Below, in pieces: positions 9,880-64,000 of a DNA stretch of 64,000 nucleotides (positions are counted from its first letter, which is position 1; each line of letters starts with the position of its first letter). A program made the translations under genes and the position numbers. The stretch is from Geosiphon pyriformis uo1. Lineage: Eukaryota; Fungi; Glomeromycota. The notes beneath the pieces are model-generated. The model had not been told where the DNA came from. It searched no databases and saw nothing but the letters and a program-made list of their open reading frames with translations. The stretch lies in contig JAAOMT010000591.1 of NCBI GenBank assembly GCA_016748015.1, positions 410,335 to 474,334 of the forward strand, read 5' to 3'.

Positions 9880-10150
9880 CAAAAATAATAGTTTAAATAA
9901 TATTATAATCAAGCTTTGCAAAAAAAAGAAATAAATGTTTAAAGAAAAATAATTAACTTTAAATATACAAAAAATTTAATGGTTTTATTACAAAACAATT
10001 TAGAAAAACTATATATTATTAAACCTAAAAAAAAAATTACACAAACAATTTTTTTACTATTAATAAAAATTACAAAATTCATATTAATAAAAAATCAAAA
10101 AAAATAATATAAATAATAATAAAAACTTTATAGTTTTGGATCAATAAAAA
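9880..10150 (+). pseudogene. Fossil dUTPase of an eroded gypsy pol
   Basis: aagctttgcaaaaaaaagaaataaatg...ttattacaaaacaatttagaaaaactatatattatt...aaattacacaaacaattttt...agttttggatcaa aligns with dUTPase DNA at ~46780-47025 (LQNDSEK..EKIAQAIFLPL..FGST). Confidence 0.7.
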
Positions 10151-10222
10151 AAAAATTAAAACAAATTTAATTAAAACAACAAAAAAAATATTAATTAATT
10201 AAAATTAAACAGCTTATTATGC

Positions 10223-13200: not shown

Positions 13201-13460
13201 TTATTATGTATCTTTTTTTGTTATTTCTGAGTATTATTAATATTGTTAGCTGTTATTCTATAATTGTTTTCTAATGTTTCTATTAGTTGGTATGTTTTTT
13301 GATATAAAGTAGCTTCAAAATTCTCTTTAGTAATTAATTTTGTTGAAAAAGAAGATATTTTTTATTCAATAAGTAGAATGGCTTATCTTTTATAAACTAG
13401 TTCAAATAGTATAAACTGATTAGTATTTTGCTTTAGTATTTAATATACAAATAATACAGA
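10223..13460 (-). mobile_element. Eroded 3' half of a family-A-like gypsy element: integrase C-terminus (~13460-12900), ORF3 (~12800-11133, split by a solo LTR), 3' LTR (11142-10223)
   Basis: Decayed KKQWSGKFDPKWD coding DNA near 13100. ORF3 motifs EITINNKKI, YWFFKIGGQL and LYTVFKYC. Eroded PPT followed by TATTACC (=TGTTACC) at 11142; LTR end tattacag at 10223. Confidence 0.7.
11683..12660 (+). mobile_element. Solo LTR of family B with 4-bp TSD CCAT
   Basis: Starts TGTTACCAG and ends cctctgataata (eroded cctccggtaaca). Homologous along its length to the LTR at 61871-62823. CCAT on both sides (11679-11682, 12661-12664). Confidence 0.9.
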
Positions 13461-13479
13461 AGGTATGAATAAAAAAACA

Positions 13480-15065
13480 ATAAAATAAAAAATATAATTA
13501 TAAATAAAATAGACTATTTTATATATATAGACTTTTAAAAAATAAATATATAAGTTAAAACTAAATAATAAAGTTTTAAAAAAAGTTATACATAATAATA
13601 AACCAATTTTAAATTTTTAATTTCACAAATTAGTATATAATTTTTTTTAATTAATTCAAAAAATAATTCTTAAAACTTAAAATTTTTATATTTTTTTAGA
13701 AAAATAAAAAAAATTATTAAAATTATTTCTTAACTTATTTATAATAATTATTAAAAATTAAATTAATTATATTTAAAAAAATTTATTATAACTTTAATAA
13801 TAAATTTACAAAATTATTACTTTTATAAAAGAAACACAAAAAATTATTTTGAAATTTACTTATTAAAAATTTTAAAACAAGCTTTAAAAAAAACTTATTA
13901 TTTATTTGTATTAATATTTCTCCAATATTACAATTTAATAAAAACTTTAATTGTATTTTAATAAACAAAACAATAAATATACACTAATTTATAAATATTT
14001 TATATAAAAAAAGCATTTTATAAAAAAAACTGGAATTTAAAACAACAAATTTTATTTTAAAAGTTATTTAAAAGCAAATACATAACAAATTCAAAATAAT
14101 AATTAGATTAACATTTATTACAAAATTAAAGTTACTTAAAGACTTTATAATCTATTTTATATTTGTAAAAATATTTTATAAAATTTAGTTTTATAATTTT
14201 TAAAGATTTAATATATTAAAAAGCTTATAAAATTAAAATTTTAACAATTTTTAAACCAAATTGTTTTAATAATCTTAGATAATTATTTAGAATTACAGAT
14301 AATATTTGGATTTTAATAAAATTTAGTTTTAAAAAAAAGATTATATTATTAATAAAAATTTTAAATTATTTATTATTACAAAATTATTCTTATAATTTTT
14401 AACATATATTATTATTTTAATTTATTATTTATTATTTTATTAAATTATTAAATATTATTATTTAATTAATAATTTAATTTGTACAATATACAAATATAAC
14501 TAATTGTAATAATAAAATTATGTAATACTTTAAACTATATAATATTCAAAAATTTGCCAAAATATTTAAAAATTTAATAAAAAATTTAATAGTTTATTAA
14601 AATAATTAATGATTTATAAAAATAATTTGTAATTTGCCAAAATATATTTTTAATTTACCAAAATATTAACAAAAAAAAGTGCTAAATTATAAAATAATAT
14701 TACAATAAATTGTATAAAAAAAAGCTTTTTTTTTAAAAAAAAAAAATTTTTAAAATTTTAATTTAGAATAACCAATTAATTACTGCAAATTAATTCAAAT
14801 AAATTTATGTTTTGAAAACCAATAAATTTTTTTATAATTATTATTGTTTAAAACTCAAAATTTTAATTAATATTTTAAAATTAATTAATTACCAATTTTA
14901 ATAATTACTTAATTAATTTTAAATTTAAATTAAAAACATTTTTTTATTTTTTATATTTAAGTAGCTTATAATTAAGACATTTTGTAAAAATATTGATTTT
15001 TATAGCAAAATAACTATATATTATTAAAAAGTTTACAAACAAGAATTTTTGTAAAAAAGTTGAAT
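13480..15065 (+). mobile_element. Highly eroded family-B 3' end: ORF3 remnant, PPT and LTR starting ~14344
   Basis: 14311-14360 atttggattttaataaaatttagttttaaaaaaaagattatattatt is the eroded form of gcttggactttgatggagctcagtcttgaggaggagattatgttacc (reverse complement of ~62815-62860). Downstream sequence aligns with LTR B. Confidence 0.8.
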
Positions 15066-17899
15066 TAGTTTTAATAATTATGTTAAAGAAAATAAAATAA
15101 ATTGTTTTTAAAATCTAATTTTAAATTAATAAAATCATATAAAAATTAAAACACAGTTTTAATGTAATATAATTTTTGTAATAATATTAAATACTAAAAT
15201 AAAAAACTATTTATTCAAAAAAATTTAATAAATAATTTTTTTTTTAAATATTATTAAAACCAATAATGTTTTTTAAAAATAAAAAAAAGTATTCTAGTTT
15301 TTATCTTATTAATTTAATTATTATAATTAAATATTTTATTTTTAAAACTGGTAATAATTAATTAAAATTTATATTAAACAATATAATTAAATATTAATTC
15401 AAGTTAAATTTAACCAATATATCATTGTTATTAATCTTTAAAACAAAAAAAAACTTAATATTTTAAAAACAAAAATAACAAAAAAAAAATTAATAGCAGT
15501 TTAATAACCAGTTTGTAATTAAAAACTCTGAAACTCTTTACATAATAATAATTATATTAAGACTATTTTTAACATGTTACTTTGAAAAAACTTTTACTTA
15601 AAACTAAAAATAGTGTTTTTTTTAACAACTAAAAGCTGCTTAGTTTTATTATTGTTTTAATAGTGGTCAAAAAATTGTAAAAGAATTGTTTTTTTTTGCT
15701 TTTTTATAATTTTTATAAATTCAATAATCATATTCAAACTTGAAAAACTGTGCCCCAACCACAATATGCTTTAATAACTCGCTACACTGCTCTGACGATT
15801 GTTTAATTTTAATAGATACACCCAAGGCTTTCAGAGCTTCCATGCACCTCTTGAACCCCAAAATAAACTTTGAAATCATAAAGACTACATTGGTCAAGAT
15901 GTTAACTTATAATGCATGGAAATGCTATTGTTTTTAGAAGAATAGTGGAATACCGAATTCTCTAACTTTTTATTTCAGAAAGAGCAACAAAAAAAGCTTT
16001 AGCTTTTATACCAGCAAACAGCAAACATATGAAGACAGCTCCTTCATTTCACTAGAATCAATTCTCTTTTCAGCCCAGTTCTCAAAACGTTTCGCACTTT
16101 TTTTCGGTGGATGTGACTCCAGCCAGCCAGCCAGCATGATCAATTATTTTAGACGACGAGAAATCCTTGGTTTGAGAGTTTGTGCTTTCTTCAAGTTGCC
16201 TGCATAGTTACTGAGATTTTCTGTCATCAGCCCAGCGGAATTCTCAGTTTTGCCAATGTGCTCGTAGTTGCTAATATACTACCGAGAAGGTTAGGATTCT
16301 TTAATATGCGCATACATAATGCACGTATGTTATTACCCTTAAATTCCAGAATAGTTACAATGATTGGTGACTCCAAAAGTTTTTATCATGGCTATGTACA
16401 AAGGATTGTACTTGACATATGATATTATAATCACCAGCGACGAAGCCGGCTCCATAGTGGTGGGGTTGATGATGTCTCATATACAAAAACCTACGGGCGT
16501 GATCCCTTATGTATTGTGTGAAATAGATCTCCCCACATTTCGACGACTCCTAACTTGGTGCCCCTAGCACAAACACCCCTTCCACTTTTTGTCCTAACGA
16601 ACGATCCGCCAGTTTCGGGCGTCGGGACAAAATCCGTTAAGCAGCGGGCACGAATGCACCTCCCACTGTTGAAGACGGTAATACTTCATTTGTTACAACA
16701 TACATTATGTAAACAGGTAGCTATAAACAGCACATACGGATAATACTCGGGATTCGCCAATTAGATTCATGATGAAATGGAGAAGCAATGACCCAAAGGT
16801 CGATTCCTGGACACTATGCAACAACGGATGAGTGACCTCCTTGCTCTTGGGAAATACCCATAGAGCTGCTGGTGGCTTTTATCACCACGAAAACAAGTCA
16901 TCTGTTTTATCGACAGGTGAGTAGAGATCCCCGTATCACGTGGGAAGTTCCTTATTTTCTTCTCTAAACGATAAATATCTTCGCATGACCAAGTTTCCTG
17001 GCTTCATCTATCAGCGACGTTCAATTCGGCTCGGTCCTGGAAATTTCGGGCTTTTGGAACATCGTTCAATCCTGCTGTGAAATCGACTAGCACTTGATGT
17101 TTGATAAATTCTTGTCGCAATTTTCCCGTGTAAGTTAAGAAACATAATGATTTCCACTCAAAGGTGTCACTTGAGCGAAATAATCCACCGCATCGAGTCT
17201 TGTGTCATGGATGTTGTTTCCTGCAAACATGAACAGATTGGACGCTTTATTCAAACCATAGCAAAAGTTGAGAGTGTGAAAAAATCAAAATACAGGAAAT
17301 GGAGGAAACGGAGCATATTCTTACAAGCAAGAACGGAAACCAGGCAAATGAAGTGCGAAAAACGTCAAATAAAGGCAACAGGGACGAGCGAAGCAAATGG
17401 GGTGGTCGACGAAAGGAGCAAAAAACAGAATTACGTGCGTGTGTTGACCACACCGCATGATCACTTTGTCTGGTTTTGTTGTATGTCCCATAAATACAGG
17501 TTGTTCACTATTAGACTAATTTAAAACTTTGATTTCCTTGAATCCGTTAATGATTAAACTACATTGGAACTTTGACGTATACCGTAAATACCAAAATATT
17601 ATAAAATACAATTTTCTTGATCTTTTTCGCAATGGAGTGCAAGTTGAACCGATTTGTAAAATTTCCCAAACAAAAATATTATGTCTTGGTGCTTTTGAAC
17701 TGTATGAACATCGACGTTATCCCTGAGATACAACATTACAGAATGAATATATGGATTTGCACTTAATAGAGAAAAATGGCAAACGTAATAAAAACTTACT
17801 ATATTTTCCGTGCGCGCGTATTTTTTCCTCCATCCTTGAGCTACAAGATGTACTCTCTCTGTGTAATTTAACATATTTAATATGTTTATTTCTATAACT

Positions 17900-40600: not shown

Positions 40601-41710
40601 TGAGTCCTTTGTATAATGGACAAAGATTCAATAATAATAGTTGGTTGGTGAGTTGTGTTCCCAATTTCTGTCTTCAGCTTGGTGGCCAGTTTATTCTGGC
40701 AGTTGTGCCCTTCTGATAAGCTATCCATTAATATATATATAATTTTACTCTTATTTCTGGGTTTTTTACCAGGCTATCTGTGACATCAATTACTTAGTGC
40801 TTTAATTCTTAATTAGTTAATATACAACAGTAAAAATCAAAGAAATAAAGAAATAAATAAAAATAAAGAAATAAGCCAAGGCAATATGCACGTTAGTATC
40901 TCGTCAATAGCCATGATTAAGAGCTATTGTTCTAGTGTGGTTAAGTATCAATTACTATTAACATAANNNNNNNNNNNNNNNNNNNNCCCAATTTCTGTCT
41001 TCAGCTTGGTGGCCAGTTTATTCTGGCAGTTGTGCCCTTCTGATAAGCTATCCATTAATATATATATAATTTTACTCTTATTTCTGGGTTTTTTACCAGG
41101 CTATCTGTGACATCAATTACTTAGTGCTTTAATTCTTAATTAGTTAATATACAACAGTAAAAATCAAAGAAATAAAGAAATAAATAAAAATAAAGAAATA
41201 AGCCAAGGCAATATGCACGTTAGTATCTCGTCAATAGCCATGATTAAGAGCTATTGTTCTAGTGTGGTTAAGTATCAATTACTATTAACATAAAGTGTTG
41301 ATAATGGAGAGTAGATTTGGATAGTAAATGATTTATTTATTTAATATTTGTAAATAAAAGATTTCTAAGTAAAAGATTCTTATCTTTCTACTTCTAATGC
41401 TATCACTATATATACATAATTAAAGTTCTATAAGATTGCTCACATTCCCAAGTAATGTGCTATGATTTTTTGAGCAATGTGTTATGATTTCTATTATTGC
41501 TCTACATTGCTGAGCAATGTGCTCACGTGCTACATACTATTCACTCATTGGTCTACTATTCTCCCTATATTTGTTTTTTTTTTTATAAGTAACAGTGGAC
41601 ATTAAAAATCTGTTGGCTAGAAATAACTCAGTCATCTCAAAAGAAGATAATACTCTTGGACGAACTCATGTGATACAACATACTATTACCACCAAAGAAA
41701 CTTGCCTTAT
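37640..41710 (+). pseudogene. Family C gag-protease-Cys-rich segment-RT N-terminus, interrupted at 40485 and 41711; no dUTPase
   Basis: Zinc knuckle CYYCGLTGHFLRDC (~38982), protease LDSRSSVSVI, GLCAWCWCNKP. Resumes at 41595 as VDIKNLLARN..LGRTHVIQHTI (RT start). Confidence 0.85.
40485..41594 (-). mobile_element. Solo LTR of a family-A variant (A'), TSD ATGG/GTGG; includes an artefactual duplication at the gap
   Basis: TGTTACAG at 40485 and agtaaca at 41594. R/U5 part homologous to 42050-42578. Confidence 0.85.
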
Positions 41711-42578
41711 TGTTACTCATAGAAATATAGGAATTATATTAGCATAATTATTAGCCAATCAGAAGTAAGCATAGTAAATATGGAATTCCAGGATTCCTCT
41801 TAGGAATTGCAGGATTCCAGGAATTTCAGGATTTCTGACAAGAAATTGCAGAATTCCAGAATTTCAGGATTTCTCTCAAAGGAATCGCAGGATTCCAAAA
41901 ATTCCAGGATTCCTGTCATAAAGAATTGAGGAATTGAGGAATCTCAATTATGTATATATAGCAGTAGTATTAGAAACAGAAAAGACAGAATTGATACTAC
42001 AGAATCCTTAGCTTAGAAACACAATCATCAAATAAATAATTATTTCATATCTCAACCCACTCTCTACTATCAACATGAAGTGTTGATAGTAATTGATACT
42101 TAACTATGCTGGGACAATAGCTCTTGATCATGGCTATTGACGGGATATTAATCTGCAAATTGTTTTGGCTTATTTCTTTTCTTTATTTATTTTTCTTTTA
42201 TTTTTTTTTCTTTATTTTATGTTTATTTGTTGTTGTATACTAATTGATTAAAAAGATTAAGCACTGAGTTATTGATATCAAGGATAGCCTAGTAAAAGAC
42301 CCAGAAATAAGGGTAGAATTTTATATATTATCAGATAGCTTACCAGAAGAGCACGACTGCCAGACTAAATCCGGCCACCATGCTGAGAAAAAAATTGGGA
42401 AAACTCTTGGGAAAATACATTTACTATTAACACTATTGAATCTCTATCCGTTATACAAAGAACTCCATCAAAACCTTAAGATACAACACCTTCAGATTAT
42501 TATCAACTGCTATTAGCTTTGAGCACCAAGTTATGGGTTTGTGAGTTAATTCAACAATAGAAATAATCACCTGTAACA
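41711..42578 (+). mobile_element. 5' LTR of gypsy family A, with GGAATTCCA/CAGGATTC-type repeats at 41782-41945
   Basis: TGTTACTC...CTGTAACA termini, followed by a PBS. Confidence 0.9.
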
Positions 42579-42580
42579 TT

Positions 42581-42597
42581 TGGTGCTCGCTGTGAGG
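42581..42597 (+). other. Primer-binding site of family A (TGGTGCTCGCTGTGAGG)
   Basis: 2 nt after the LTR end. Confidence 0.85.
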
Positions 42598-45600: not shown

Positions 45601-48600
45601 GAGCGAACTGACTTCAAATTGGAAATGGGAAGAAGACAAAGAAAATAAAGGGAAGGGAAAAAAAAAAGAGACCACTCAAATCACCACCACTTATAACACC
45701 TACACTACACCACAATGATCTATCTATCGTCAACCCAAACTTATATACATTGATTGTGGCAAAAAATTGTCGTCAATGAGTGCATGCTGTGAGGATAATG
45801 AGAAATATTCAATGGCAACTAGGTTCTATTGCCACCCATGTGTTCTTGAACGCTTTAGAAGACCAAAACGAGTAGGGAAATGGGACAATCAGCCATGCTT
45901 AGCTTGTGGAAAGACTCTCTTAGACAAAGGAATGTGGCATGACATTCCTGGACATAGAAGAATATGCAACATATCATGTCAATACACAATTCTAATAAGT
46001 GACTGGGTAAGGAAAGGAATCCCAATAGAAGCAGTCTAGAGAAGAGCCGTACAGCGACTGGACAGTTGCCCACATGATGATGACAAAATTTGGCAAATGG
46101 CACTTGCAAAAATCAAAGGGGTGATGTCAGAAGAGATAAAAACGATCAAAGACAACACCCCAGAATCTTTAGAGCTTAACTGGGATACAGAACCCATCAT
46201 AAACCTCCTGGATCTAGAACAATTCTACGAACACTATCAAAAATTAGCACCCACAAGGGAAGAACAAGAACAATGGTTAGAACAGTTGAATACTTGACTA
46301 TATCAACACTGCCTAATTTCCTGTGACTTCCAGTATTGCAATGAGTGTAACCTCATTTACAATCCACCACCACGTATGATCTACACGATCCCAGAAAAAG
46401 AAGAACCAATCAGCAGCTGCGCATCAAAATTAGAATTGCCGATCAATCGCGATTCAAACTCCGACAATGACGATGACAACAACGGTTCAAGCTCCATTCA
46501 AAATGGCAATGACAATGACAATGATTTTAACTCAAATACAAACTCCGATTTAAACTATGAACAATATATTGTATTACCAGATCTCTCCAAGGAACAAGAG
46601 TTGAAATGATATAGTGACAATGGGGAAGGTATTATGCCAGAACGTGCACATGATACTGATATAGGGTTTGATCTAAGATATTCAGGAAAAAATGCCATCA
46701 AATTGGAACCACATTCATGCACCTGCATTGATCTGAAAATAGCACTAGAAATTCCGGCAACAATCATGGTTCAATTAGCATCTAGGAATAATTTAGCAAA
46801 AAGAGGGATTAATATAAAAGGAGGAATAATTGATGTGGGATATGTAGGAAATATTATTGCTATGCTACAAAATGACTCAGAAAAGGCCTATGTAATAGAA
46901 CTCAATGAAAAGATAGCACAGGCAATATTCCTGCCTCTGGTTAGAATAGTACAGTTAGTATCAATAGAAAAGAGGGAGAAATTAGGAATAACAGCAAGAG
47001 GAATACAGAGATTCGGATCCACAGGTAGAATAGATGTACCAATTAACATGACAGAGGAAAAAATTGTTGACCAAGGAGAAATTATCTCAACTGGTCAAGC
47101 TATTTCTATTCCACTATATAGCCAGTACATGTTAGCAATAGAAAGAAAGGAAAAGGAGCAAGAACAGATGTTTGAAGTGGAAGCAACCCTTTGTGAATTG
47201 GGAGAGATTGGGTTGATCAATCTCCACATACCAGCCAAAAGCTATAGCAGCATAAAAATTCCCATCTACAATAATACTGGCAATGTCATCAGCATACCAG
47301 AAAGAACCACCATTGGATATTTAACCACAGAAATAGAAGACCAACCACCAAATCCCATTCCAGACTTTCCACAACTTTGTGGATATGTTGACATCACATC
47401 ACAAACAATCTATGGACAAGACAAATGTTATTTGCTCCAACCAGAACAATTGGAACAAATGAACATGGGAAACTTAGATCCACTCCAATGTATGCAGCTC
47501 AAGATGTTACTCAACAATTTCAATGACATTTTTGCCAGCAAAAATGAATTTGGCCGAACTGACATCATCCAGCATCAGATCAAGACTGGAGATGCAATGC
47601 CAATCAAACAAAGAGCATACAGAGTGCCGCCAGCCAGCCACAAGATTATTCATCAAGAGATAAACAGAATGCTTGACAACGGGCTAATTCAACTATCAAT
47701 GAGTCTATGGTCGTCACCAGTGGTACTCGTCCATAAGAAAAATGGAAAAATCCAGTTTTGTGTAGACTACAGAAAACTCAATAGTGTAACTCGTGGAGAC
47801 AGTTATCCAACTTCACAAATACAGGAATTATTCGATGCTTTCGGTGGGAACAAATGGTTCTCCACATTAGATTTGGACAGTGGTTACTGGCAAGTAGCCA
47901 TGAATCCAGCTGACAAAGAGAAGACGGCATTTACTACTAGAGAAGAGAATTTCGAATTTGAAGTAATACCATTCGGCTTAACCAATGCCCCAGCGACTTT
48001 CCAACAGCTAATGGAAATTGTTTATATGGGTTTATTGTGGAAATCAGTAGTTGTATACTTGGACAACACCAATGTATTCTTAAAGACATTTGATGATCAT
48101 CTTCATCATCTTCAACAAGTGTTTGAAAGACTAAGAAGAGCAGGACTGAAGCTAAATGCAACAAAGTGCTTCTTTGGCAAGACGAAACTCAAATTCTTGG
48201 GACACATAGTCAGCAAAGACAGTATCAAAATGGATCCAGAGAAAATAGAGATAGTAAAGAACTTTCCAGTACTGACCAATATAACAGAACTGAAATCATT
48301 CTTGGAATTTGCCAGCTACTATCATTGTTTTATCAAGAACTTTTCTAAGATAGCGCAGCCACTCAATCAACTACAAAACAAAAATGTGAAATATGAATGG
48401 ACAGAAAGTCAACAAGAAGCTTTTGATATTCTGAGGAAAAAGCTCATTCAAGCTCCAGTGCTGATCTATCCAGATTACAGCAAACCATTCATCATCACCA
48501 CTGATGCATCCGGCCAAGCATTGGGAGCAGTATTATCTCAGAGAGAACTGGACAGCAGAGAACATCCAATAGCATATGCCAGCAGAGGTTTAACACCAGC

Positions 48601-50804
48601 CAAAAAGAACTATGGAACACCGGAACAAGAACACTTGGCAATATACTGGGCCATCATAAAATAGAAAAAATACTTGAGCCAGAAGTTTGAAGTATACACA
48701 GATCACAAGGAATTAACATCATTCCAAAAACAAAAATTTGGAGATGGAAGACAGTCAAGATAGAAAATGGCATTTGCACCATACAATTATATTATACATT
48801 ACAAAAAGAGAAAAAACAATGGAAATGCTGATGGTTTATCGCGAATAAAACAAATCTAAGAATATTTCAACCCAAAAATATAATAAAACCAGAACAATAC
48901 CAACAGAAAAATACAACAAAAGATGAACATACAAAAATATCAACAATTACAACATTATCTAAATACTCAACAGTTCAAGAAGAATTTATCTCATACGGAA
49001 CGAAGGAGTATCAAACAACAATCAAAATATTTTATCACTCACCAAAATATACTTTATCAGAAAAATAGAAGAGATTCAGATCAACCAACCAGAGTAATTA
49101 CAGAGCCAGAAAAAGAGACAATATTATTCAACATGCACTCAAATCCAACAGCAGGACATTTTCACAAAGAAGCAACCATAGAAAGAACTAGAAAAAGATA
49201 CTATTGGCCATCAATGTACCCAGATATCATTCAATATGTTCAAAATTGTGATGCTTGTCAGTGAAAAGGAGGAACAAGACCCAGTGAACCATTAAGACCA
49301 ATCAAAGTGGAACAACCATTTGACCATATGGAAATTGATTTAGTTGGACCATTAACAATTACCAGCAGAGGAAACAGATACATAGCAGTAGCTATGAACT
49401 ATTTCACTAAATGACCAGAGGCAAAAGCAATTCAAAGAGTGGATGCAGAATCCATTGCCGAATTCATTCATCAGGAGTTAATTTGTTGACATGGATGTCC
49501 AAAAGAATTATTATCAGACCAAGAAACTTATTTTGTGAACAGAACATTAACTGAATTGAGCCAAAGATTTGGAATCAAAAGACCATTATTATCATCATAC
49601 CATCCACAAACCAATGGATTGGTAGAAAGATTTAACAGAATGTTGTGTGAAGCAATAGCCAAGCTCAGCCAAGAAAACCAGAACGATTGGGATTTGTTTA
49701 TACCTTCAGTACTATTTGTTTATTGGACAACGAAACAAGATACTACACAAGCAACACCATTTGAATTAGTATACGGGAGAATAGCAACGTTACCAGTAGA
49801 AAGAGAAATTAATACATATCCAGCTGAACCAATAACAGAGGAAAATTTTCAAGAAACATTGCTGAGAAGAACATATGACTTAATAGAAACATTGGAAAAC
49901 AAATGAAAAAGAGCAGCTGATAATATCCAAAAGTCACAAGAAACACAGAAAGAAAGACATGATAGTCAACTACCAGACAAACCAGTTGAATTCAAGATCG
50001 GAGACAAAGTATTACTACATTATACCAAAGTGAAAAAACAATGGAGTGGAAAATTTGACCCCAAATGGGATAGACCATTTCACATAGAAGAAATTCTAGG
50101 AAATGGAGCTTACAAATTAAGATTGGATANNNNNNNNNNNNNNNNNNNNNNNNNNNNNNNNNNNNNNNNNNNNNNNNNNNNNNNNNNNNNNNNNNNNNNN
50201 NNNNNNNNNNNNNNNNNNNNNNNNNNNNNNNNNNNNNNNNNNNNNNNNNNNNNNNNNNNNNNNNNNNNNNNNNNGGAGAATAGCAACATTACCAGGAGAG
50301 AGAGAAATTAATACATATCCAGCTGAACCAATAACAGAGGAAAATTTTCAAGAAACATTGCTGAGAAGAACATATGACTTAATAGAAACATTGGAAAACA
50401 AATGAAAAAGAGCAGCTGATAATATCCAAAAGTCACAAGAAACACAGAAAGAAAGACATGATAGTCAACTACCAGACAAACCAGTTGAATTCAAGATCGG
50501 AGACAAAGTATTACTACATTATACCAAAGTGAAAAAACAATGGAGTGGAAAATTTGACCCCAAATGGGATAGACCATTTCACATAGAAGAAATTCTAGGA
50601 AATGGAGCTTACAAATTAAGATTGGATAACAAAATTTTAACCAAAGCAGCACATGGAGATCGACTGAAACCATATCACAACATCATACTACCATCTACCA
50701 GTAATATTTCACAATTAAGAGTACAGAGAATACTAGTCCAACTAAATAAGATTTCACAAGATCTGGAACCAATTATTATTATCGACAACAACACGTTAAA
50801 TTGA
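42641..50804 (+). pseudogene. Family A gypsy polyprotein: N-terminal extension-gag-CCHC-protease-Cys-rich-dUTPase-RT-RNaseH-integrase, broken by nonsense codons
   Basis: All ORF fragments from 42641 to 50030 share one frame. CHYCGKQGHIQIDC, LDSGSAGSII, RT (FCVDYRKLN, LDLDSGYWQV, PFGLTNAPATFQ, YLDN), RNaseH TTDAS, integrase GHF/YYWP/CDAC and YHPQTNGLVERFN. Confidence 0.95.
46634..47030 (+). CDS. dut: dUTPase domain within family A pol
   Basis: All five motifs in order: GFDL, ASRNNL (normally SRSSL), GGIIDVGYVG, KIAQAI, RGIQRFGSTG. Confidence 0.93.
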
Positions 50805-50858
50805 TCCATCAAAAGAATATATAAAGACATGGTAGATACAACAGGAAATATCAGAAAA

Positions 50859-51183
50859 ATGGAAATTACAGACAACATTCACTTACTAGCACAACAACTC
50901 TTTCAATTAATCCAACACCAGAAAATGGAGATTACAATCAATCAACAAACTATTCAATATCAAGATACTAGAAAGACATTGCAACCCAGAACACAGAAGA
51001 AAACTGAAAATACAGTAGACTAAATCATTGTGAAAGTAAAATTAGCAATAAAAGAATCGACAAAAAAGTCACTATATCAAGAGTTGACTAAAGAAACTTG
51101 GAATTGGTGGATACAACAATTTCCACAAAACTATTGTTATTTTTACTTGGGACAACACGTAAATATCCAGAATCTATATATGA
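50859..51183 (+). pseudogene. Family A accessory ORF3 (N-terminal part), cut by an LTR B insertion
   Basis: MEITDNIHLLAQQLFQLIQHQKMEITINQQTIQY...YCYFYLGQHV aligns with family B ORF3. Confidence 0.7.
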
Positions 51184-53629: not shown

Positions 53630-56600
53630 TGTTACCGGAGGTTTTTGGTCTCTTTTCTTAAATGTTGGTAATGTTAATTTGCTGTGAATTCACGTTTTCA
53701 GGAAGTAGTTGAACCTCCAATAACTGAATTTATCTTCAAATTATCTTCTATAATTTGAACTGCTGGGCTTATAAGTGGAATGGCCAATTCCTTGCCAGTT
53801 ACTTTATGTAGTTACGTTGTAGTAAACGTCAACTCTTTCCCAGGAATTGCTCGTCTGGAAGCTCACTAAAAATGTGTAGTTACTTTGCTGTGAAAGTCAA
53901 CTCTTCTACAGGAATCTCGTCTGTAGGCTATCCTAATAATTGTAATAAAAAAAATAAAAAAAAATAAAAAAAATGTAAAAGAAATAGAATTTTGTCAAGA
54001 GAAACGTTTTCTATCCAGGCCTGGAGTCACTAACAGTTTACTGAAATTGGTAGCTAATCAATTTCGAANNNNNNNNNNNNNNNNNNNNNNNNNNNNNNNN
54101 NNNNNNNNNNNNNNNNNNNNNNNNNNNNNNNNNNNNNNNNNNNNNNNNNNNNNNNNNNNNNNNNNNNNNNNNNNNNNNNNNNNNNNNNNNNNNNNNNNNN
54201 NNNNNNNNNNNNNNNNNNNNNNNNNNNNNNNNNNNNNNNNNNNNNNNNNNNNNNNNNNNNNNNNNNNNNNNNNNNNNNNNNNNNNNNNNNNNNNNNNNNN
54301 NNNNNNNNNNNNNNNNNNNNNNNNNNNNNNNNNNNNNNNNNNNNNNNNNNNNNNNNNNNNNNNNNNNNNNNNNNNNNNNNNNNNNNNNNNNNNNNNNNNN
54401 NNNNNNNNNNNNNNNNNNNNNNNNNNNNNNNNNNNNNNNNNNNNNNNNNNNNNNNNNNNNNNNNNNNNNNNNNNNNNNNNNNNNNNNNNNNNNNNNNNNN
54501 NNNNNNNNNNNNNNNNNNNNNNNNNNNNNNNNNNNNNNNNNNNNNNNNNNNNNNNNNNNNNNNNNNNNNNNNNNNNNNNNNNNNNNNNNNNNNNNNNNNN
54601 NNNNNNNNNNNNNNNNNNNNNNNNNNNNNNNNNNNNNNNNNNNNNNNNNNNNNNNNNNNNNNNNNNNNNNNNNNNNNNNNNNNNNNNNNNNNNNNNNNNN
54701 NNNNNNNNNNNNNNNNNNNNNNNNNNNNNNNNNNNNNNNNNNNNNNNNNNNNNNNNNNNNNNNNNNNNNNNNNNNNNNNNNNNNNNNNNNNNNNNNNNNN
54801 NNNNNNNNNNNNTTCAAGGCTAACATTAATTTTTGGGATATTTGTTGAATATTTCGGGGAATAATCATGATAAAATTGACTAATTATGAAAAGAGAAAAT
54901 AAAGAAAATTATTTTTGGATATGGGGTTTTTATTTGTTTTTGGGTTTGAGTGTTTTGTAATTATTTACTATTTTTGTCTTTGTGTTTTTAGTAGAGAATT
55001 ATTGTAAAATTTAAGTGTTCAAGTTTGGTTGTTGTTCTATTATAATTATTGGTTCTAAATTTCAGGAAATATCTTCAGGATTAATTAAAGGAGAATGTAT
55101 ACCAATTTGTGGAATTAATGGTTCAGGATTGTTTCTGGAATGATAGTATTTCAGTCTGTCTCCATGTGCAACTTTTGCTAATATTTTGTTATCAAGTCTT
55201 AACTTATATGATCCATTGTCTAGAATTTCATGAATATAAAATAGTCCATCCCATTTGTTTTCAAATTTCCCACTCCATTGTTTTTCAGCCTTAGTTCTGT
55301 GTAAGAGAACTTTATTTCCAACTTTAAATTCGTTGGTAATAGATGGTAATTTGTTGTCATATCTTTCTTTTTGTTAAGCTTGGGAATGTTCAATATAAGC
55401 TGCTGCTATTTTTCTTTTTCCTTCCAGTGTACTAAGAAGAGTGTAGGCTCTTCTTTGGAATGTCTCTTGAAAGTTTTTTTCATTGATTGGTTGCACTGGG
55501 TATATTTCCACTGTGAAATTAATTGGTAATGTTGCTGTTTTTCCATAAGTAAGATCAAATGGTGTGTGTTTCGTAGTATCTTGTTTTAGTGTTCTGTATG
55601 CTAGTAACACTGATGGAATAAAGATATCTCATTCCTGTTCAAAGTTTGTTGAGACTTTGGCTAAAGATTCACACAATGTTCTGTTAAAATGTTTTACAAG
55701 TCCATTTGTTTGAGGGTGATAAGGTAATGATAGAGGTCTTTTGACATTGAACTGTTTACAAATTTCTTGTATCAAGTTGTTCACAAAATGTGTTTCTTGA
55801 TCAGATAAGAGTTCAATTGGACATCCATGTCTACAGATAATGTCTTCATAGATGAATTTTGCTACTGATTTTGCATCTGCTTTTTGGATGGCTCTAGCTT
55901 CAGGCCATTTGGTAAGATAATCCACTGCAACTGCAATATAATAATTTCCTTGGGTTGTGATAGGTAATGGTCTGATTAAATCAATTCCAACTCTGTCAAA
56001 AGGTTGTCCAACTTTGATTGGATTTAAAGGTTCTGTGGGGTGAGTTCCTTCTCTTCTTTGGCAGTTATCACAAGATTCTACATATTGTCGAATGTTTTTT
56101 TACATGTAAGGCCAAAAATAATGTTCAAGGGTTCTTTGAATTGTTCCTTCTTTTCCCAAGTGTGCTGAAGACAGATCTGTGTGCATGTTGTATAAAATTG
56201 TTTCTTTTTCATTCTCTTGTACTAATCTGAATGGCTGGTTTGGTTTTCTGTGATTTTTATAATAAATTTTGTTCTGGTGTATAAAATATTGTTTTGATTG
56301 GTGTTGTAAGTGGTGTTTTTTACTGGGAGACCAGTTTTCTGGCATGATAAGGGTTTCCAAATAATTTTTAAGATTGCTGTAGTTTCTGGATCTATTTTTG
56401 TTTGGTTATTTTGTTGGTAAGTTGGTAAGTTGTGGTGGAATTGTTGTTGGTACTAATCTTGTCTCATTCTTGAGAGGCTATCAACATTGGTATGTAGTTT
56501 TCCTGGTTTGTGGTGTACAATATATCTGTAGTCTACTAGGAAGTCATTCCATCAAGACTGTTTGGCACTTTGTTCAGTTTTCTTTTTATTGAGCCATTTG

Positions 56601-59600
56601 AAGCCAATGTTGTCCATTATTATGTCAAATTCTTTTCCATTTTTCAGATATTGTTGAAAATGTTTAAGAGCCCAAATAACTGCAGCAGCTTCTAATTCAG
56701 TTGAGCCATATTTGAGTTCTGTTGGCTTGAGTGTTCTGCTGGCATAGGCAATAACTTGTTCTTGGCCATTTTCATTTAATTGTGATAAGATAGCACCAAA
56801 TGCTATGTGTGAGGCATCAGTGGCTAATTGGAATCGTTTGTTGAAGTCTGGATAAGCAAGAACTGGGGCTGTTGTCAATTTTGTTTTGAGAATTTCAAAA
56901 GCTTTNNNNNNNNNNNNNNNNNNNNATAACTGCAGCAGCTTCTAATTCAGTTGAGCCATATTTGAGTTCTGTTGGCTTGAGTGTTCTGCTGGCATAGGCA
57001 ATAACTTGTTCTTGGCCATTTTCATTTAATTGTGATAAGATAGCACCAAATGCTATGTGTGAGGCATCAGTGGCTAATTGGAATCGTTTGTTGAAGTCTG
57101 GATAAGCAAGAACTGGGGCTGTTGTCAATTTTGTTTTGAGAATTTCAAAAGCTTTTTGTTGTTTTTCAGTCCATTTGTATGGTACATTTTTGTTGGTAAG
57201 ATAATTGAGTGGTTTGGCAATTTCTGAGAATCCTTTTATAAATTTTCAATAGTAAGAGGCTAATCCCACAAATCCTCTTAGTTCTGTAGTATTTCTGGGA
57301 GTTTGAAAGTTTTTGACAGCATTGATTGTTTCTGGATTTGGTTTGATTCCATCTTTACTAACTATGTGTCCAAGAAAGATTAAACTTGTTTTTCCAAAGT
57401 GACATTTCTCAATATTTAACTTTAATTCTGCTTTCCATAATCGTTAAAAAACTTCTTGCAGGTAAATGAAATAGGCTTCAAAGCTTGGTGAGTATACATC
57501 AGTATCATCAAGATAAACAACTACTGATTGCCACAAGAGCCCTTCATAGACAACATCCATAAGTTGCTGAAATGTTGCTGGTGCATTGCAGAGTCCAAAA
57601 GGCATAACATTAAACTCATAATTTCTTCCTTAAGTGGTGAATGCTGTTTTGGGTCCATTTCGACTTGCCAGTATCCACTTTCCAGGTCTAAAGTTGAAAA
57701 GAACTTGGCTTTTCCTAGAGCATCTAGCATGTCATCAATTCTTGGAAGAAGGTAGGCATCTCCAATTGTAACACTATTCAGTTGTCTATAATCAACACAG
57801 AATCTAATTTTTCCGTTTTTCTTTTTAACCAAAACTATTGATGAGGCCCAAGGACTTCTTGATGGTTGAATCAATCCGTTATTGAGCATTCTTTGGACTT
57901 CTTTTCTGATAAATTGGTGGCTGGCAGGTGGCACTTGATAAGCTTGTTGATGTTTTGGTAGAGCATCTCCTGTATGGATCTAATGTTGAACAATGTCTGT
58001 TTTTCCTAAGTTATTGTTGTCTTTTGCAAATATATCTGCAAATTCAGCTATCAATTGTTTTAATTGTCTTTGTTGTTGAGGTTCTAAGGGACCCATATTG
58101 ATTCGAGAGAGTTTTTCTTCCAACAAGTGGTAGTTTTCAGTAGTGGGAATGATATTTGGATTTGGGAGTAGAGTGTGCTTTACAATTTCGATGAAATTAG
58201 AGACAATCTGAGGGTTTTCATCTTGAAAGATATTGCTGTGTATGATTTTAATTTTTAATTTGTTTAATAAAACAATAGGATAATTATTGGGGTTGTAGAA
58301 TGTAACTCGAAATTTTTTCATTCTTTTGGGAATATAAACGTTTGGAATTGATATTTCATGTTTCAAACAGATTTGTTCATTGAATTCAAAGATTTGTTGG
58401 GTAGTGGTGGGTTTTGAGCAAGTGTAAATTTCGTGATGTTTTCTAAAAGGTGAAATGGTAATTGGCTGAGGAAGTTGAAGAATCTGGTGAGATTCATTTT
58501 GTGTATTAAGAACTATGTTTACTGAAACTGTAAATCGTCCAGTTGAACCAAAACTTTGAATTCCTCTTTCACTCTTTCCCAATTGTTCTCTGCTGTTTAC
58601 TGATTGTAAACTCGAAATGTTGATTAAGGGTAAGTAAATTGCTTGAGCAATTTTTTCAGCATGTTCAATTTTGAATGGTTTGTCTGTCTCATTCTGTAAC
58701 ATGATGGTAATGTCTCCAGTGTATCCTGCATCTATAACTCCTCTTCTAATATTGATTCTTTTGCTTGCCAATGATGATCTGGAGGCAATTTGAATCATTG
58801 CTCCTGCTGGAATTTCAAGAGCAATTTTAAGATTGATTTTTGTCAAAAACTTTGGNNNNNNNNNNNNNNNNNNNNNNNNNNNNNNNNNNNNNNNNNNNNN
58901 NNNNNNNNNNNNNNNNNNNNNNNNNNNNNNNNNNNNNNNNNNNNNNNNNNNNNNNNNNNNNNNNNNNNNNNNNNNNNNNNNNNNNNNNNNNNNNNNNNNN
59001 NNNNNNNNNNNNNNNNNNNNNNNNNNNNNNNNNNNNNNNNNNNNNNNNNNNNNNNNNNNNNNNNNNNNNNNNNNNNNNNNNNNNNNNNNNNNNNNNNNNN
59101 NNNNNNNNNNNNNNNNNNNNNNNNNNNNNNNNNNNNNNNNNNNNNNNNNNNNNNNNNNNNNNNNNNNNNNNNNNNNNNNNNNNNNNNNNNNNNNNNNNNN
59201 NNNNNNNNNNNNNNNNNNNNNNNNNNNNNNNNNNNNNNNNNNNNNNNNNNNNNNNNNNNNNNNNNNNNNNNNNNNNNNNNNNNNNNNNNNNNNNNNNNNN
59301 NNNNNNNNNNNNNNNNNNNNNNNNNNNNNNNNNNNNNNNNNNNNNNNNNNNNNNNNNNNNNNNNNNNNNNNNNNNNNNNNNNNNNNNNNNNNNNNNNNNN
59401 NNNNNNNNNNNNNNNNNNNNNNNNNNNNNNNNNNNNNNNNNNNNNNNNNNNNNNNNNNNNNNNNNNNNNNNNNNNNNNNNNNNNNNNNNNNNNNNNNNNN
59501 NNNNNNNNNNNNNNNNNNNNNNNNNNNNNNNNNNNNNNNNNNNNNNNNNNNNNNNNNNNNNNNNNNNNNNNNNNNNNNNNNNNNNNNNNNNNNNNNNNNN

Positions 59601-62600
59601 NNNNNNNNNNNNNNNNNNNNNNNNNNNNNNNNNNNNNNNNNNNNNNNNNNNNNNNNNNNNNNNNNNNNNNNNNNNNNNNNNNNNNNNNNNNNNNNNNNNN
59701 NNNNNNNNNNNNNNNNNNNNNNNNNNNNNNNNNNNACTGCTGCATTACTAAGCAGAAATGGTGATTCATTTGCCTCAAATTCAAATGGAAATATATCTGA
59801 CAGATTAGCATTTTGGGCAATTTGAGCTGAGGGAATGGTGTGGTTGAAAGAGTTTGATCTTGGTGCTGCAATTTCATCTTCAGAAAGTGCAGTTTGTTGA
59901 AAATCCGATTCCTCTGGTATTGTAAGATAACTGGGTTGAGTGTGATAGTGATTGGGTCTTTGCTGGCCCAAATTTCGGAAAACCAACTGGTTATTTGAAT
60001 TGATTCTGTTGTGGTTATTCTGCAATTGATTTTGGGGTGTGAATTGGTTATGTTGAACCAATCTTCTTGCTGGTACTTGATATTGTTGAGTGGGTGGTGT
60101 CTGATATGGCTGAATTGGTAAAGGTTGCTGATATTGTTGCTGCATTAATTGTGGAGCTGGTGGATAGTAACTGTTTTGATTTTGTGGTCTTGGTGAATAA
60201 TAAGTTGGTGGTGGAGATTGGTAATAGGATTGTTGTGGTGAAGAGTAATGTTGATTACTTCTGTTTTGTTGGTCTCTTTGCAATTTCCCACAATCTCATT
60301 TCCAGTGTCCTGGAATTCCACAATAATGACAATTTTGAGATTGGTTGTTGGATGTTAATCCAAAATTGTTTTGGTTGCATCATTGTGGTGATTAATATTT
60401 TTGTGGTTGTTGCTGCTGTTGTTGTTGGTTTTTAAAATAGCTTTTAACTTTCTTTGCGAGTTGGTCTATCTTTTCTTCAGCTGCTGAGCTGGTTTCTCCA
60501 ATTGCAAGGTTTACAAGCTTGGTGTGATTTGCTTCTTTCATTGCCATTTCATAGCTCTTTGCATGTCTAATAGCAGTTGCTAAATCTGTTGGAGCATGTG
60601 GACGGACTTTCTTAATCAATTTGTCTTTTAATCTTGCTATAAACTGATCTAAGATTTGAGCATCAGAATAGTAGTTATTGGTTTTCAATTGTCAGATTCG
60701 TCTGAGAAGTTTGTTAAATCTTCCAAGATAGGTCATAACAGATTCAGATGTTTCTTGTTTGATATTGCGAAAGTGGTTTCTGAGAGTGATAGAGGTATTG
60801 TTGTCAGTAAATTGTTGTAGAAAAGCATCTTTGAATGCTTGCCAGTTTTTAAATGGTTCTTCTAAATTTTTAAACCATTCTCCTGCTGTTCCTTGGAAAA
60901 AGTAGGGAATTGCTTTGAGCATTCTTGCTGCAATTCAACTATTTGTATCTCCTGCTTTTTGAACTTTGTTAAGCCATTCTTGGGGACTGGTATCATTGTC
61001 TTCACCAGTAAATTCTGGGATTTTTGCAATGTAAGCAGTTGCCATTTCTTCCTCATTTTCTGTAATTTCTTCTGGTTTTGATTCAGTTTCTTTACTTTCC
61101 AAGCTTTCTGAGTGATTACTTTCGTTTTCCTGTAAGTAATCAATAATATTGGCACTTGTTGATATTGGTTCCTGCTGTTGAATAGGATTTCTAGGTGACT
61201 GAAAATCTTCTGGTCTGGAGAAACGGCTAAGTGGTAAACTTGGTGTTTGTGGTTGAACAAGTGAAATTGGAAATGGTGTAATAGAAAGTGGNNNNNNNNN
61301 NNNNNNNNNNNNNNNNNNNNNNNNNNNNNNNNNNNNNNNNNNNNNNNNNNNNNNNNNNNNNNNNNNNNNNNNNNNNNNNNNNNNNNNNNNNNNNNNNNNN
61401 NNNNNNNNNNNNNNNNNNNNNNNNNNNNNNNNNNNNNNNNNNNNNNNNNNNNNNNNNNNNNNNNNNNNNNNNNNNNNNNNNNNNNNNNNNNNNNNNNNNN
61501 NNNNNNNNNNNNNNNNNNNNNNNNNNNNNNNNNNNNNNNNNNNNNNNNNNNNNNNNNNNNNNNNNNNNNNNNNNNNNNNNNNNNNNNNNNNNNNNNNNNN
61601 NNNNNNNNNNNNNNNNNNNNNNNNNNNNNNNNNNNNNNNNNNNNNNNNNNNNNNNNNNNNNNNNNNNNNNNNNNNNNNNNNNNNNNNNNNNNNNNNNNNN
61701 NNNNNNNNNNNNNNNNNNNNNNNNNNNNNNNNNNNNNNNNNNNNNNNNNNNNNNNNNNNNNNNNNNNNNNNNNNNNNNNNNNNNNNNNNNNNCTCTAGAG
61801 TTGCTGTGTCTGGTGTGGTTGCCACTTTGAATTTGTTGTTGTTGTGTTATTTCCATGGGAGAGCACCAAATGTTACCGGAGGTTTTTGGTCTCTTTTCTT
61901 AAATGTTGGTAATGTTGATTTGCTGTGAATTCACGTTTTCAGAAAGTAGTTGAACCTCCAATAACTGAATTTATCTTCAAATTATCTCTTATAATTTGAA
62001 CTGCTGGGCTTATAAGTGGAATGGCCAATTTCTTGCCAGTTACTTTATGTAGTTATATTGTAGTAAACATCAACTCTTTCCCAGGAATTGCTTGTCTGGA
62101 AGCTCACTAAAAATGTGTAGTTACTTTGCTGTGAAAGTCAACTCTTCTACAGGAATTTCATCTGTAGGCTATCCTAATGATTGTAATAAAAAAAATAAAA
62201 AAAAATAAAAAAAATGTAAAAGAAATAGAATTTTTTCAAGAGAAACGTTTTCTATCCAGGCCTGGAGTCACTAACAGTTTACTGAAATTGGTAGCTAATC
62301 AATTTCGAAATGTTAGTTGGGTTTTTGGGGGTTTTTCCAAGTACAATAATTAAAGAATTTGGTTTTTTCGAATTATTTGATATTTATTTCTTTTTGTGTG
62401 TATAGGAATGGTTTTAATAGATAAATCTAAAGTAAGATACATTTTCCAGAAGAGAAAAGTTCTTCTTTTATATAACTTGTTGTAGTACTAGTTTATAAAC
62501 TTGCATTTTTTCTCTTTGCCCAAATTCCAGCAAACTAAAGATACATTTTGATGAACTACAAGTTATTTTGCTGAACTATTCATAATTTCGGCGAATTTCT

Positions 62601-62823
62601 GTAAATTTCGGCGAATTTTTGAATGTTACAAAGTTCAGAGTATTGTGTAATTTGATCATCTTACTTTTTGTTATACTAATTAGATTATTTTAATTGAATC
62701 GTGATATGTGATAATTAATTAAATAATAAATGATAATTTGAAATGATATTAATATACTAATGAATTATAGGAATTATAAGGGTAGTTTTATGCTAATTAA
62801 TAGCTAAAATTCTACTGGTAACA
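53630..62823 (-). mobile_element. Near full-length family B gypsy (-): LTR 62823-61871, PBS, gag, dUTPase (~58854-58530), RT, RNaseH, integrase (~56400-55050), ORF3 (from 54868), 3' LTR ending at 53630
   Basis: ASRSSLA..GVIDAGYTG..KIAQAI..RGIQSFGSTG; RFCVDYRQLN; LATDAS; DYLTKWPEA..YHPQTNGLV. Two homologous LTRs; several N gaps. Confidence 0.92.
61853..61868 (-). other. Primer-binding site of family B (TGGTGCTCTCCCATGG)
   Basis: 2 nt after the LTR end ggtaaca on the minus strand. Confidence 0.8.
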
Positions 62824-63806
62824 TAATCTCCTCCTCAAGACTGAGCTCCATCAAAGTCCAAGCACTATCTGTAATATTTAGATAGTGATCTAAAATGATT
62901 GAAGTAATCTGGTCTGAAAATTGTTGAAATTTCAGTTCTGTGAGTTTGCCAATGTATTGAACTTTCATTGATTGCAGTATTGGATTTTGTAGAACATTTT
63001 CACAAGTATTAAACAAATCATAGAGTCTAAAAGCTGCTCTAAGTTTATAGCGAGTGTTTGTTGGTCCAGCTGCTGTTTTGAATTCATTGTAGATTTGTTT
63101 TTGTATAACTTCAGGAGTAAGATTTGTTGCTTCAAGTTCCAGTTTTCGTTCATAAAGTGTTTTTCCAATTTGAAAGTATNNNNNNNNNNNNNNNNNNNNT
63201 AATCTGGTCTGAAAATTGTTGAAATTTCAGTTCTGTGAGTTTGCCAATGTATTGAACTTTCATTGATTGCAGTATTGGATTTTGTAGAACATTTTCACAA
63301 GTATTAAACAAATCATAGAGTCTAAAAGCTGCTCTAAGTTTATAGCGAGTGTTTGTTGGTCCAGCTGCTGTTTTGAATTCATTGTAGATTTGTTTTTGTA
63401 TAACTTCAGGAGTAAGATTTGTTGCTTCAAGTTCCAGTTTTCGTTCATAAAGTGTTTTTCCAATTTGAAAGTATCTATAGATAGAAGTGTGTTCATTGTT
63501 CTGTTCATTAAGAAGTAGTAGTAGTTTTTGTTGCATTGTAGCATTTGGTGGAATGTCAATTGGGGCAATTAGCAGATTTTCTTCTAGTGCCTGCTTCAAA
63601 AGTCTTGGTAATTTATTCTCAAAGTGCCTTCTTGTTTTTCTTCTATAGGGGTGATAGTTCTGTAAATAATTTGCTACTGGGGCTGTGGTTTTTTTCTGAA
63701 TGTATTTAATTTGACTTCTATTAATCGTTATAGATAAGTCAGGGAGTGTTTTCAAGGCTAACATTAATTTTTGGGATATTTGTTGAATATTTCGGGGAAT
63801 AATCAT
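62804..63806 (-). CDS. Family B accessory ORF3 (~235 aa after removing the gap duplication), function unknown, stop codon inside the LTR
   Basis: ATG-initiated open frame MIIPRNIQQ...YRYFQIGKTL...RLYDLFNTC...LSLEEEIMLPVEF*, downstream of the integrase end (EPIIII). Confidence 0.8.
62827..62836 (-). other. Polypurine tract GAGGAGGAGA, 3 nt before the LTR
   Basis: ...cttGAGGAGGAGAtta|TGTTACCAG on the minus strand. Confidence 0.8.
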
Positions 63807-64000
63807 GATAAAATTGACTAATTATGAAAAGAGAAAATAAAGAAAATTATTTTTGGATATGGGGTTTTTATTTGTTTTTGGGTTTGAGTGTTTTGTAATT
63901 ATTTACTATTTTTGTCTTTGTGTTTTTAGTAGAGAATTATTGTAAAATTTAAGTGTTCAAGTTTGGTTGTTGTTCTATTATAATTATTGGTTCTAAATTT

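Follow-up and report, generated by a model that had tools for sequence, protein, structure and literature searches.

The reading frame that we call ORF3, located after the integrase in Ty3/Gypsy LTR retrotransposons of Geosiphon pyriformis, is a genuine third gene of a dUTPase-bearing lineage and is maintained by purifying selection. The ORF3 family is real and we have not found it described, although additional frames downstream of pol are familiar from other elements. We tentatively propose that its product binds nucleic acid and regulates the element in trans, acting most likely on the LTR of the element itself.

In the 64-kb stretch of DNA analyzed here (the window), ORF3 of the family designated B lies on the minus strand, with the ATG at 63806 and the stop at 62804. 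A scaffold gap of 20 N (63180 to 63199) splits it into parts of 202 aa (63806 to 63200) and 124 aa plus the stop (63178 to 62804), which have 91 residues in common. The two flanks of the gap, 62905 to 63179 and 63200 to 63474, are identical over 275 nt each, and this duplicate is an assembly overlap. When it is collapsed, simple arithmetic gives an ORF3 of 708 nt, i.e., 235 aa and a stop; the database copies P0002, P0008, and P0022 are likewise 235 aa long, with the same start and end. Duplicated flanks were seen at four scaffold gaps (40660 to 41293, 49776 to 50574, 56676 to 57155, and 62905 to 63474), and since they represent assembly overlaps, the apparent tandem repeats at these four places are artefacts.

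The 250 nt at 63751 to 64000 are identical to 54813 to 55062, where the last codons of an integrase stand 142 nt ahead of the ATG. By identity with 55011 to 55062, the end of the integrase of the ORF3-bearing copy, including its stop, would occupy 63949 to 64000 (minus strand). A sequence-only reading of this DNA had proposed an ORF of about 235 aa after the integrase, and both its length and its place are thereby confirmed. The polypurine tract (PPT), GAGGAGGAGA-TTA, has its first base at 62836 and, together with a 3-nt spacer, spans 62824 to 62836 on the minus strand; when read in ORF3 it encodes E-E-E-I. The LTR begins at 62823, so the stop of ORF3 lies 20 nt within it, in agreement with the earlier proposal that the EEE codons are the PPT and that the frame ends some 17 to 20 nt inside U3. 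This LTR (61871 to 62823, minus strand; 953 nt, TGTTACC...GGTAACA) is at once the 3' LTR of the ORF3-bearing copy and the 5' LTR of the next element. Since it is followed by a PBS-like sequence (61851 to 61868, minus strand; beginning with TGG 2 nt after the LTR) and a gag-pol element down to 53630, the ORF3 starting at 63806 is assigned to the upstream copy of a tandem and not to the element at 53630 to 61870. The latter (minus strand) is a decayed B element with gag, dUTPase, RT, RNase H, integrase, and a 3' LTR end at 53630; a second ORF3 start is found in it at 54868, the remainder being within a gap. The tandem of two B copies may be real or an assembly join.

A second family, A, is represented on the plus strand by an element with a 5' LTR at 41711 to 42578. 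The PBS-like sequences of A (42581 to 42597) and B (61868 to 61851) have TGGTGCTC in common and then diverge. The A-family ORF3 is present as a 5' half (50829 to 51183, plus strand) with ATGs at 50829 and 50859 and one internal stop, and is cut at 51184 by a nested B-type LTR; this LTR is a later B-type insertion and not the 3' LTR of A itself. The order of Pfam domains in A is RVT_1, RT_RNaseH, Integrase_H2C2, rve, and SH3_Tf2-1, and it is alike in B and in a metagenomic element, L001. On this RT-RNase H-integrase order, all three are classified as Ty3/Gypsy LTR retrotransposons, and the hallmarks of the group (TG...CA LTRs, a PBS starting with TGG, a PPT, and CCAT flanking a solo LTR) are present. 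The C-terminal integrase frame of A (50406 to 50801) matched SH3_Tf2-1 alone and no chromodomain (Pfam, E ≤ 1). A dUTPase domain was found upstream of RT in both A (46610 to 47030, plus strand) and B (58855 to 58540, minus strand). All three diverged elements have an in-frame stop three to four codons past the motif D-x-L-S-R that ends RNase H (A, 48858 to 48925, plus strand; B, about 56455 to 56390, minus strand; L001, 2942 to 2913). It is followed by a short linker and then, in A and L001, by an in-frame ATG opening the integrase, which is decayed in B. This arrangement points to read-through of the stop or to an integrase with a start of its own, although it may also be due to decay. Two further observations concern the LTRs: a T-rich tract followed by AGGATAGCCTA, resembling a splice acceptor in U5, is common to A and B, and the palindrome CCAGGCCTGG occurs both within the B LTR (about nt 560, region 62254 to 62265) and at the extreme 3' end of the LTR of locus L002.

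Decayed, very A+T-rich retroelement fossils lie between host genes at 2600 to 16000, consistent with strong C-to-T/G-to-A decay. One of them (11202 to 12790, minus strand) is a fossil ORF3 nearest to family C (46% over 50 aa, E = 1.6e-11), with EITINNKKI near 12700 and YWFFKIGGQL and LYTVFKYCS at 11575 to 11202. The first two of these motifs, like the A-family ORF3 at 50859, had been named in the sequence-only reading and are present. Its statement that the fossil, too, continues into an LTR of its own is not borne out, as the LTR at 11683 to 12660, which splits the fossil and has CCAT on either side, is a later B-type solo insertion and not the fossil's own 3' LTR. Another ORF3 fossil, of B type and heavily mutated, lies at 13717 to 14360 (plus strand) and is followed by an LTR remnant (14383 to 14904). 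B-type LTR junctions at 11683, 51184, and 53630 are located inside other retroelements, two in ORF3 and one in gag, and two of the three are bordered by CCAT; a target preference is possible, three cases being too few to establish one.

We then asked how widely ORF3 is distributed. The best 120 of 200 database matches to the B protein were all hypothetical proteins of G. pyriformis, with 61 to 94% identity; a second search gave 334 matches at E ≤ 1, and the 120 among the matches listed were again all from G. pyriformis. Over 300 "hypothetical proteins" of this fungus are retrotransposon ORF3 copies rather than host genes. Those in which the integrase is spliced to ORF3 (e.g., P0059 and P0038) are gene-model products and were not counted as evidence of splicing. 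ORF3 may also resemble common hypothetical proteins of Rhizophagus. The unbroken 50 residues after the internal stop of the A ORF3 retrieved 29 of 31 candidate proteins, one of which is P0131 (209 aa). A search of 50% clusters gave 32 matches, among them the distant types C (P0174, from Geosiphon), D (P0175), and E (P0179 and P0180). Two insect repeat proteins, P0177 and P0178, were dismissed as chance matches. No ORF3 relatives were found in viral contigs, phages, plasmids, or, by the PPT pattern, prokaryote genomes, while a scan of metagenome contigs with this pattern yielded two loci.

Six diverged ORF3 types can be distinguished, four in G. pyriformis (B1, B2, A, and C) and two in metagenomes (D and E), with open frames of 209 to 239 codons. 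All 15 pairs among them outscored 300 of 300 shuffles (z = 11.0 to 85), so that the inter-family alignments, on which the earlier claim of homology would have fallen had they lacked significance, are significant, even though pairwise identity is only 23 to 37% (66% for B1-B2). Nine sequences align end to end with nine invariant columns. The position after the integrase is retained in the independent metagenomic element L001, which encodes P0179 between the integrase and the PPT-LTR, at a distance of 316 nt from the integrase stop. These six types and L001 bear out the proposal that ORF3 homologues occupy a like position in diverged elements.

Purifying selection on ORF3 is clear from several comparisons. 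A contig of 353 nt from run X2 differed from the C-terminal part of ORF3 at 32 positions; of the 30 listed, 23 were synonymous and 23 were at third positions, giving an omega of about 0.08 to 0.16 over four transition weightings for this one other copy. In run X1, from the same sample as X2, 35 variants with a share of 30% or more, a set to which private decay of the copy in the window contributes, were found at 63200 to 63830; 17 were synonymous and 18 were not, and 21 of the 35 were at third positions (P = 0.001). The corresponding omega was 0.29 to 0.57 (P = 3e-4 to 0.07), the departure being nonsignificant when the null allowed transitions only (P = 0.07). In the comparison of B with L001, conservation was highest at second positions (107 of 192, versus 80 of 192 third positions). 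Among 84 near-full proteins, the 41 differences fixed between B1 and B2 were more conservative than the 153 private differences (P = 0.027). The core changed slowest, differing between B1 and B2 at 18 of 105 sites, compared with 13 of 24 in the linker. Together with the homology across six types, the synonymous excess upholds the description of ORF3 as old and selected.

The overlap of ORF3 with the 3' LTR had been interpreted as a nef-like layout, and this interpretation did not stand as a family feature. In lentiviral nef, foamy-virus bel2, and MMTV sag, the PPT is within the coding sequence and the stop within U3, and a nef-like gene is one in which a sizeable and folded portion of the protein is encoded by U3. 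ORF3 shares the placement of PPT and stop with these genes; it differs from them in that U3 contributes only 20 nt (six codons; 6 to 11 residues in relatives), in the lack of a Met-Gly start, and in showing no likeness of sequence or fold. A read-through tail is present in 74 of the proteins examined (P0001 to P0194), types D and E included. However, 10 A-type proteins end in ...F-D/N-G/R/K-A-Q-Y. The B DNA gives this ending when read in another frame, in which a stop immediately precedes the PPT; judging from these proteins and the B DNA, ORF3 of family A likely terminates in that frame, immediately ahead of the PPT. Neither a folded U3-encoded part nor a family-wide overlap was thus found. 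Around the PPT, 32 of 37 nt are identical between B and L001, and all eight identical residues near it have identical codons, as against the N-terminal part, where 31 of 55 identical residues are encoded by different codons. The tails diverge past M-L-P, are unstructured and variable, and the last 25 residues reach a pLDDT of only 43 to 57 in the full model. Since the PPT/att junction is conserved at the nucleotide level and the tail is variable and of low confidence, the overlap is incidental: it results from a frame that runs on through the PPT/att motif, itself constrained as DNA, to the next stop codon. This constraint, and the fact that the window's copy spans a gap, might be taken to mean that the whole of ORF3 is neutral, a side effect of conserved RNA/DNA signals at the 3' end or of assembly. 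That view is largely refuted, and we regard it as extremely improbable, given the synonymous excess, the conservation of second over third positions, and the frames that are open in all six types.

The predicted product is a soluble protein. The top 19-residue hydropathy was 0.27 to 1.29 in five of five representatives, with no TM helix or signal, and the model is soluble and helical, as expected from the earlier reading of a non-env protein without signal peptide or TM helix. The full-length model of the B protein (pLDDT 71) comprises a weak N-terminal helix and beta-hairpin (residues 1 to 38), a disordered basic linker (39 to 63), a helical core (about 90 to 210), and the PPT/LTR-encoded tail. 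Modelled alone, the core is compact and all-helical (pLDDT 91, pTM 0.84). In the alignment and the model, helices 133 to 148 and 153 to 167 stand around a conserved G-x-T/N-N turn that is followed by Arg/Lys. The pI of the whole protein is 5.4 to 9.3 and its net charge is -3 to +6 (five of five representatives); a net positive charge is confined to the first 70 residues, and the core is about neutral (-2 to +5). The protein had been called helical and basic: the former description is right, and the latter applies to the first 70 residues only.

The linker contains an Arg/Lys patch, P-Y-x-R/K-K, in types B, D, and E. Such a patch in a disordered segment could belong to an RNA-binding factor of the Rev/CERV kind, acting in the export or stability of unspliced genomic RNA or in the translation of a multi-ORF message, and the polypyrimidine tract just ahead of the B start codon, with an AG 11 nt before the start, the several separated frames of the element, and the precedent of CERV in Cer1 (excerpts of PMC10309623) point the same way. 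We nevertheless hold this role to be unlikely, as L001 has no acceptor-like AG directly before its ATG, A has no pyrimidine tract, the linker is the least conserved part of the protein, and Pfam searches did not link its sequence to any known export factor.

Searches for known domains and folds gave few leads. Neither the two parts in the window nor P0002 matched any Pfam family, and the 25 weak Pfam families listed, of 38 in all (50 members searched), included no TRP28, DEDDy, or GDSL domain. Foldseek returned no match at E ≤ 0.001 in PDB and BFVD for the full and core models, and a wide VIA structure search with the core returned none at Z ≥ 8 (best Z = 5.7 over 59 residues). Weak matches of the helix-turn-helix (HTH) type, to SigmaF (Z = 4.4, rmsd 2.5 over 57) and TetR (Z = 4.7), stood amid unrelated helical ones. 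The best PDB match of the ORF3 profile, importin-5 (E = 0.14), was rejected as a relative, and an Atlas search gave low recognition and unspecific matches. A faint match to DUF1016_N (PF17761) was obtained with 5 of 50 members at E ≤ 5 (best E = 0.015; Pfam); on P0058 it scored 12.9 bits, below the gathering cut-off of 32.8. With hhalign, ORF3 aligned to eight DUF1016 sequences over 60 columns at a probability of 1.7%, above 100 of 100 column shuffles; YhcG alone gave nothing, and the fold matches never named the family. Another model, phrog_23683, matched 22 of the 50 members (best E = 1.4e-4) and neither the A, D, and E types nor DUF1016 proteins. Both matches fall at residues 109 to 173 or thereabouts. 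Because the two do not match each other, and because an unrelated NCBIfam model (FtsQ) scores as well on the same ORF3 proteins (E = 5e-4), they are weak leads that may be due to chance, the DUF1016_N signal being at noise level.

The same searches bear on two other roles. ORF3 might counter host methylation or RNAi at the element: copies decay fast toward A+T and carry many stops, as methylation-driven mutation would give, the ORF3 types stay open at identities down to about 25%, and LTR expansions in the host group are very large (41.2% of the G. pyriformis genome, according to excerpts of PMC11952901). Such an anti-silencing function is nonetheless distinctly unlikely in view of the purifying, not visibly positive, selection on the core and the Pfam and VIA searches, which found no catalytic or reader domain. 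Equally doubtful is a helper of the particle or pre-integration complex that would serve in nuclear entry, target choice, or movement along coenocytic hyphae as a non-membrane stand-in for env. ORF3 does stand where env would be expected, no chromodomain was matched in the integrase, and the three B-type LTR junctions lie within other retroelements, two of them in ORF3; against this, the protein is devoid of a TM helix or signal, Foldseek and VIA found no capsid or movement protein of similar structure, and three insertions are insufficient to show targeting.

A trans-regulator of the LTR is the role we prefer, because ORF3 is a small, soluble, two-part protein with a conserved turn and basic residues between helices, because it is faintly like a nuclease-linked helical domain, and because family-specific repeats precede the TATA-like box of the LTR. 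In A, the array consists of 3.4 near-palindromic units of 39 nt, GGAATTCC/AGGATTCC (41782 to 41914), ahead of a TATA-like stretch; in B, short imperfect repeats (10 nt, 3.5 units; 62584 to 62618) lie upstream of a box at LTR nt 350. ORF3 would bind the arrays in its own promoter and boost transcription, with the HTH-like pair of helices contacting DNA and the basic linker providing nuclear import or additional binding; its expression would require a subgenomic RNA, spliced or internally started, or reinitiation. The neutral charge of the core, the lack of a match to an HTH fold, and the level of the B repeats, whose score was reached by 29 of 30 shuffles, weaken this proposal. The best repeat of the L002 LTR has an AT-rich unit and is distant from the TATA box, and enhancer repeats are common in LTRs without self-encoded factors. 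An extended version, which we consider improbable, would make ORF3 a self-encoded, sequence-specific trans-activator or anti-silencer of unsolved fold, possibly kin to DUF1016_N, co-evolving with the family-specific U3 arrays; a Tas/Tat-like circuit, the dUTPase, and the separately opened integrase frame would then define "complex" retroelements and help explain the LTR explosion in Archaeosporales. ORF3 is small and soluble, with a well-modelled core and hundreds of gene models in one genome, and since each family has a distinct LTR, whether it is a self-encoded regulator of transcription or silencing is directly testable by pairing each ORF3 with its own LTR and with that of another family.

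Few of the accessory genes found in LTR retrotransposons have been characterized, and those of fungi have barely been studied. Our literature search, with a scope outside GyDB, Repbase, supplements, and the Geosiphon genome paper, brought up no account of the ORF3 protein family. As far as the excerpts go, a sense ORF between pol and the 3' LTR is known from plant Retand/Tat/Athila Ty3/Gypsy elements (PMC11963269), several ORF3 types from bdelloid rotifer elements (PMC5408684), and an "add. ORF" is drawn in fungal gypsy elements (PMC2864245). Like these, our ORF3 follows the integrase, occurs in most copies of its lineage, and has a role that is unknown or regulatory. It differs in having no TRP28, DEDDy, GDSL, or env-like domain and no Pfam, PHROG, NCBIfam, or PDB family match, and its host is likely a glomeromycotan fungus. 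The N-terminal domain of DUF1016_N/YhcG proteins is helical, of unknown fold, and joined to a PD-(D/E)XK nuclease (excerpts of PMC1189080); ORF3 resembles it in the in-register motif Y-x-x-I-G ... G-x-x ... L/R-x-x-x-x-Y-x-x-F over about 60 residues, and differs in scoring far under the family cut-off and in lacking the nuclease domain. With CERV of Caenorhabditis elegans Cer1, ORF3 has in common that it is a non-env accessory protein of an LTR retrotransposon, the regulatory role being that of CERV in the excerpts of PMC10309623; no likeness between the two proteins was detected. PosPlaTy3-5 elements of fungi have a dUTPase between PR and RT, with Tmt1 cited alongside in the excerpts of PMC2864245. 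A, B, and L001 differ from PosPlaTy3-5 in their ORF3 and in the in-frame stop between RNase H and integrase, and A and B have no chromodomain match; A and B share with it the dUTPase upstream of RT.
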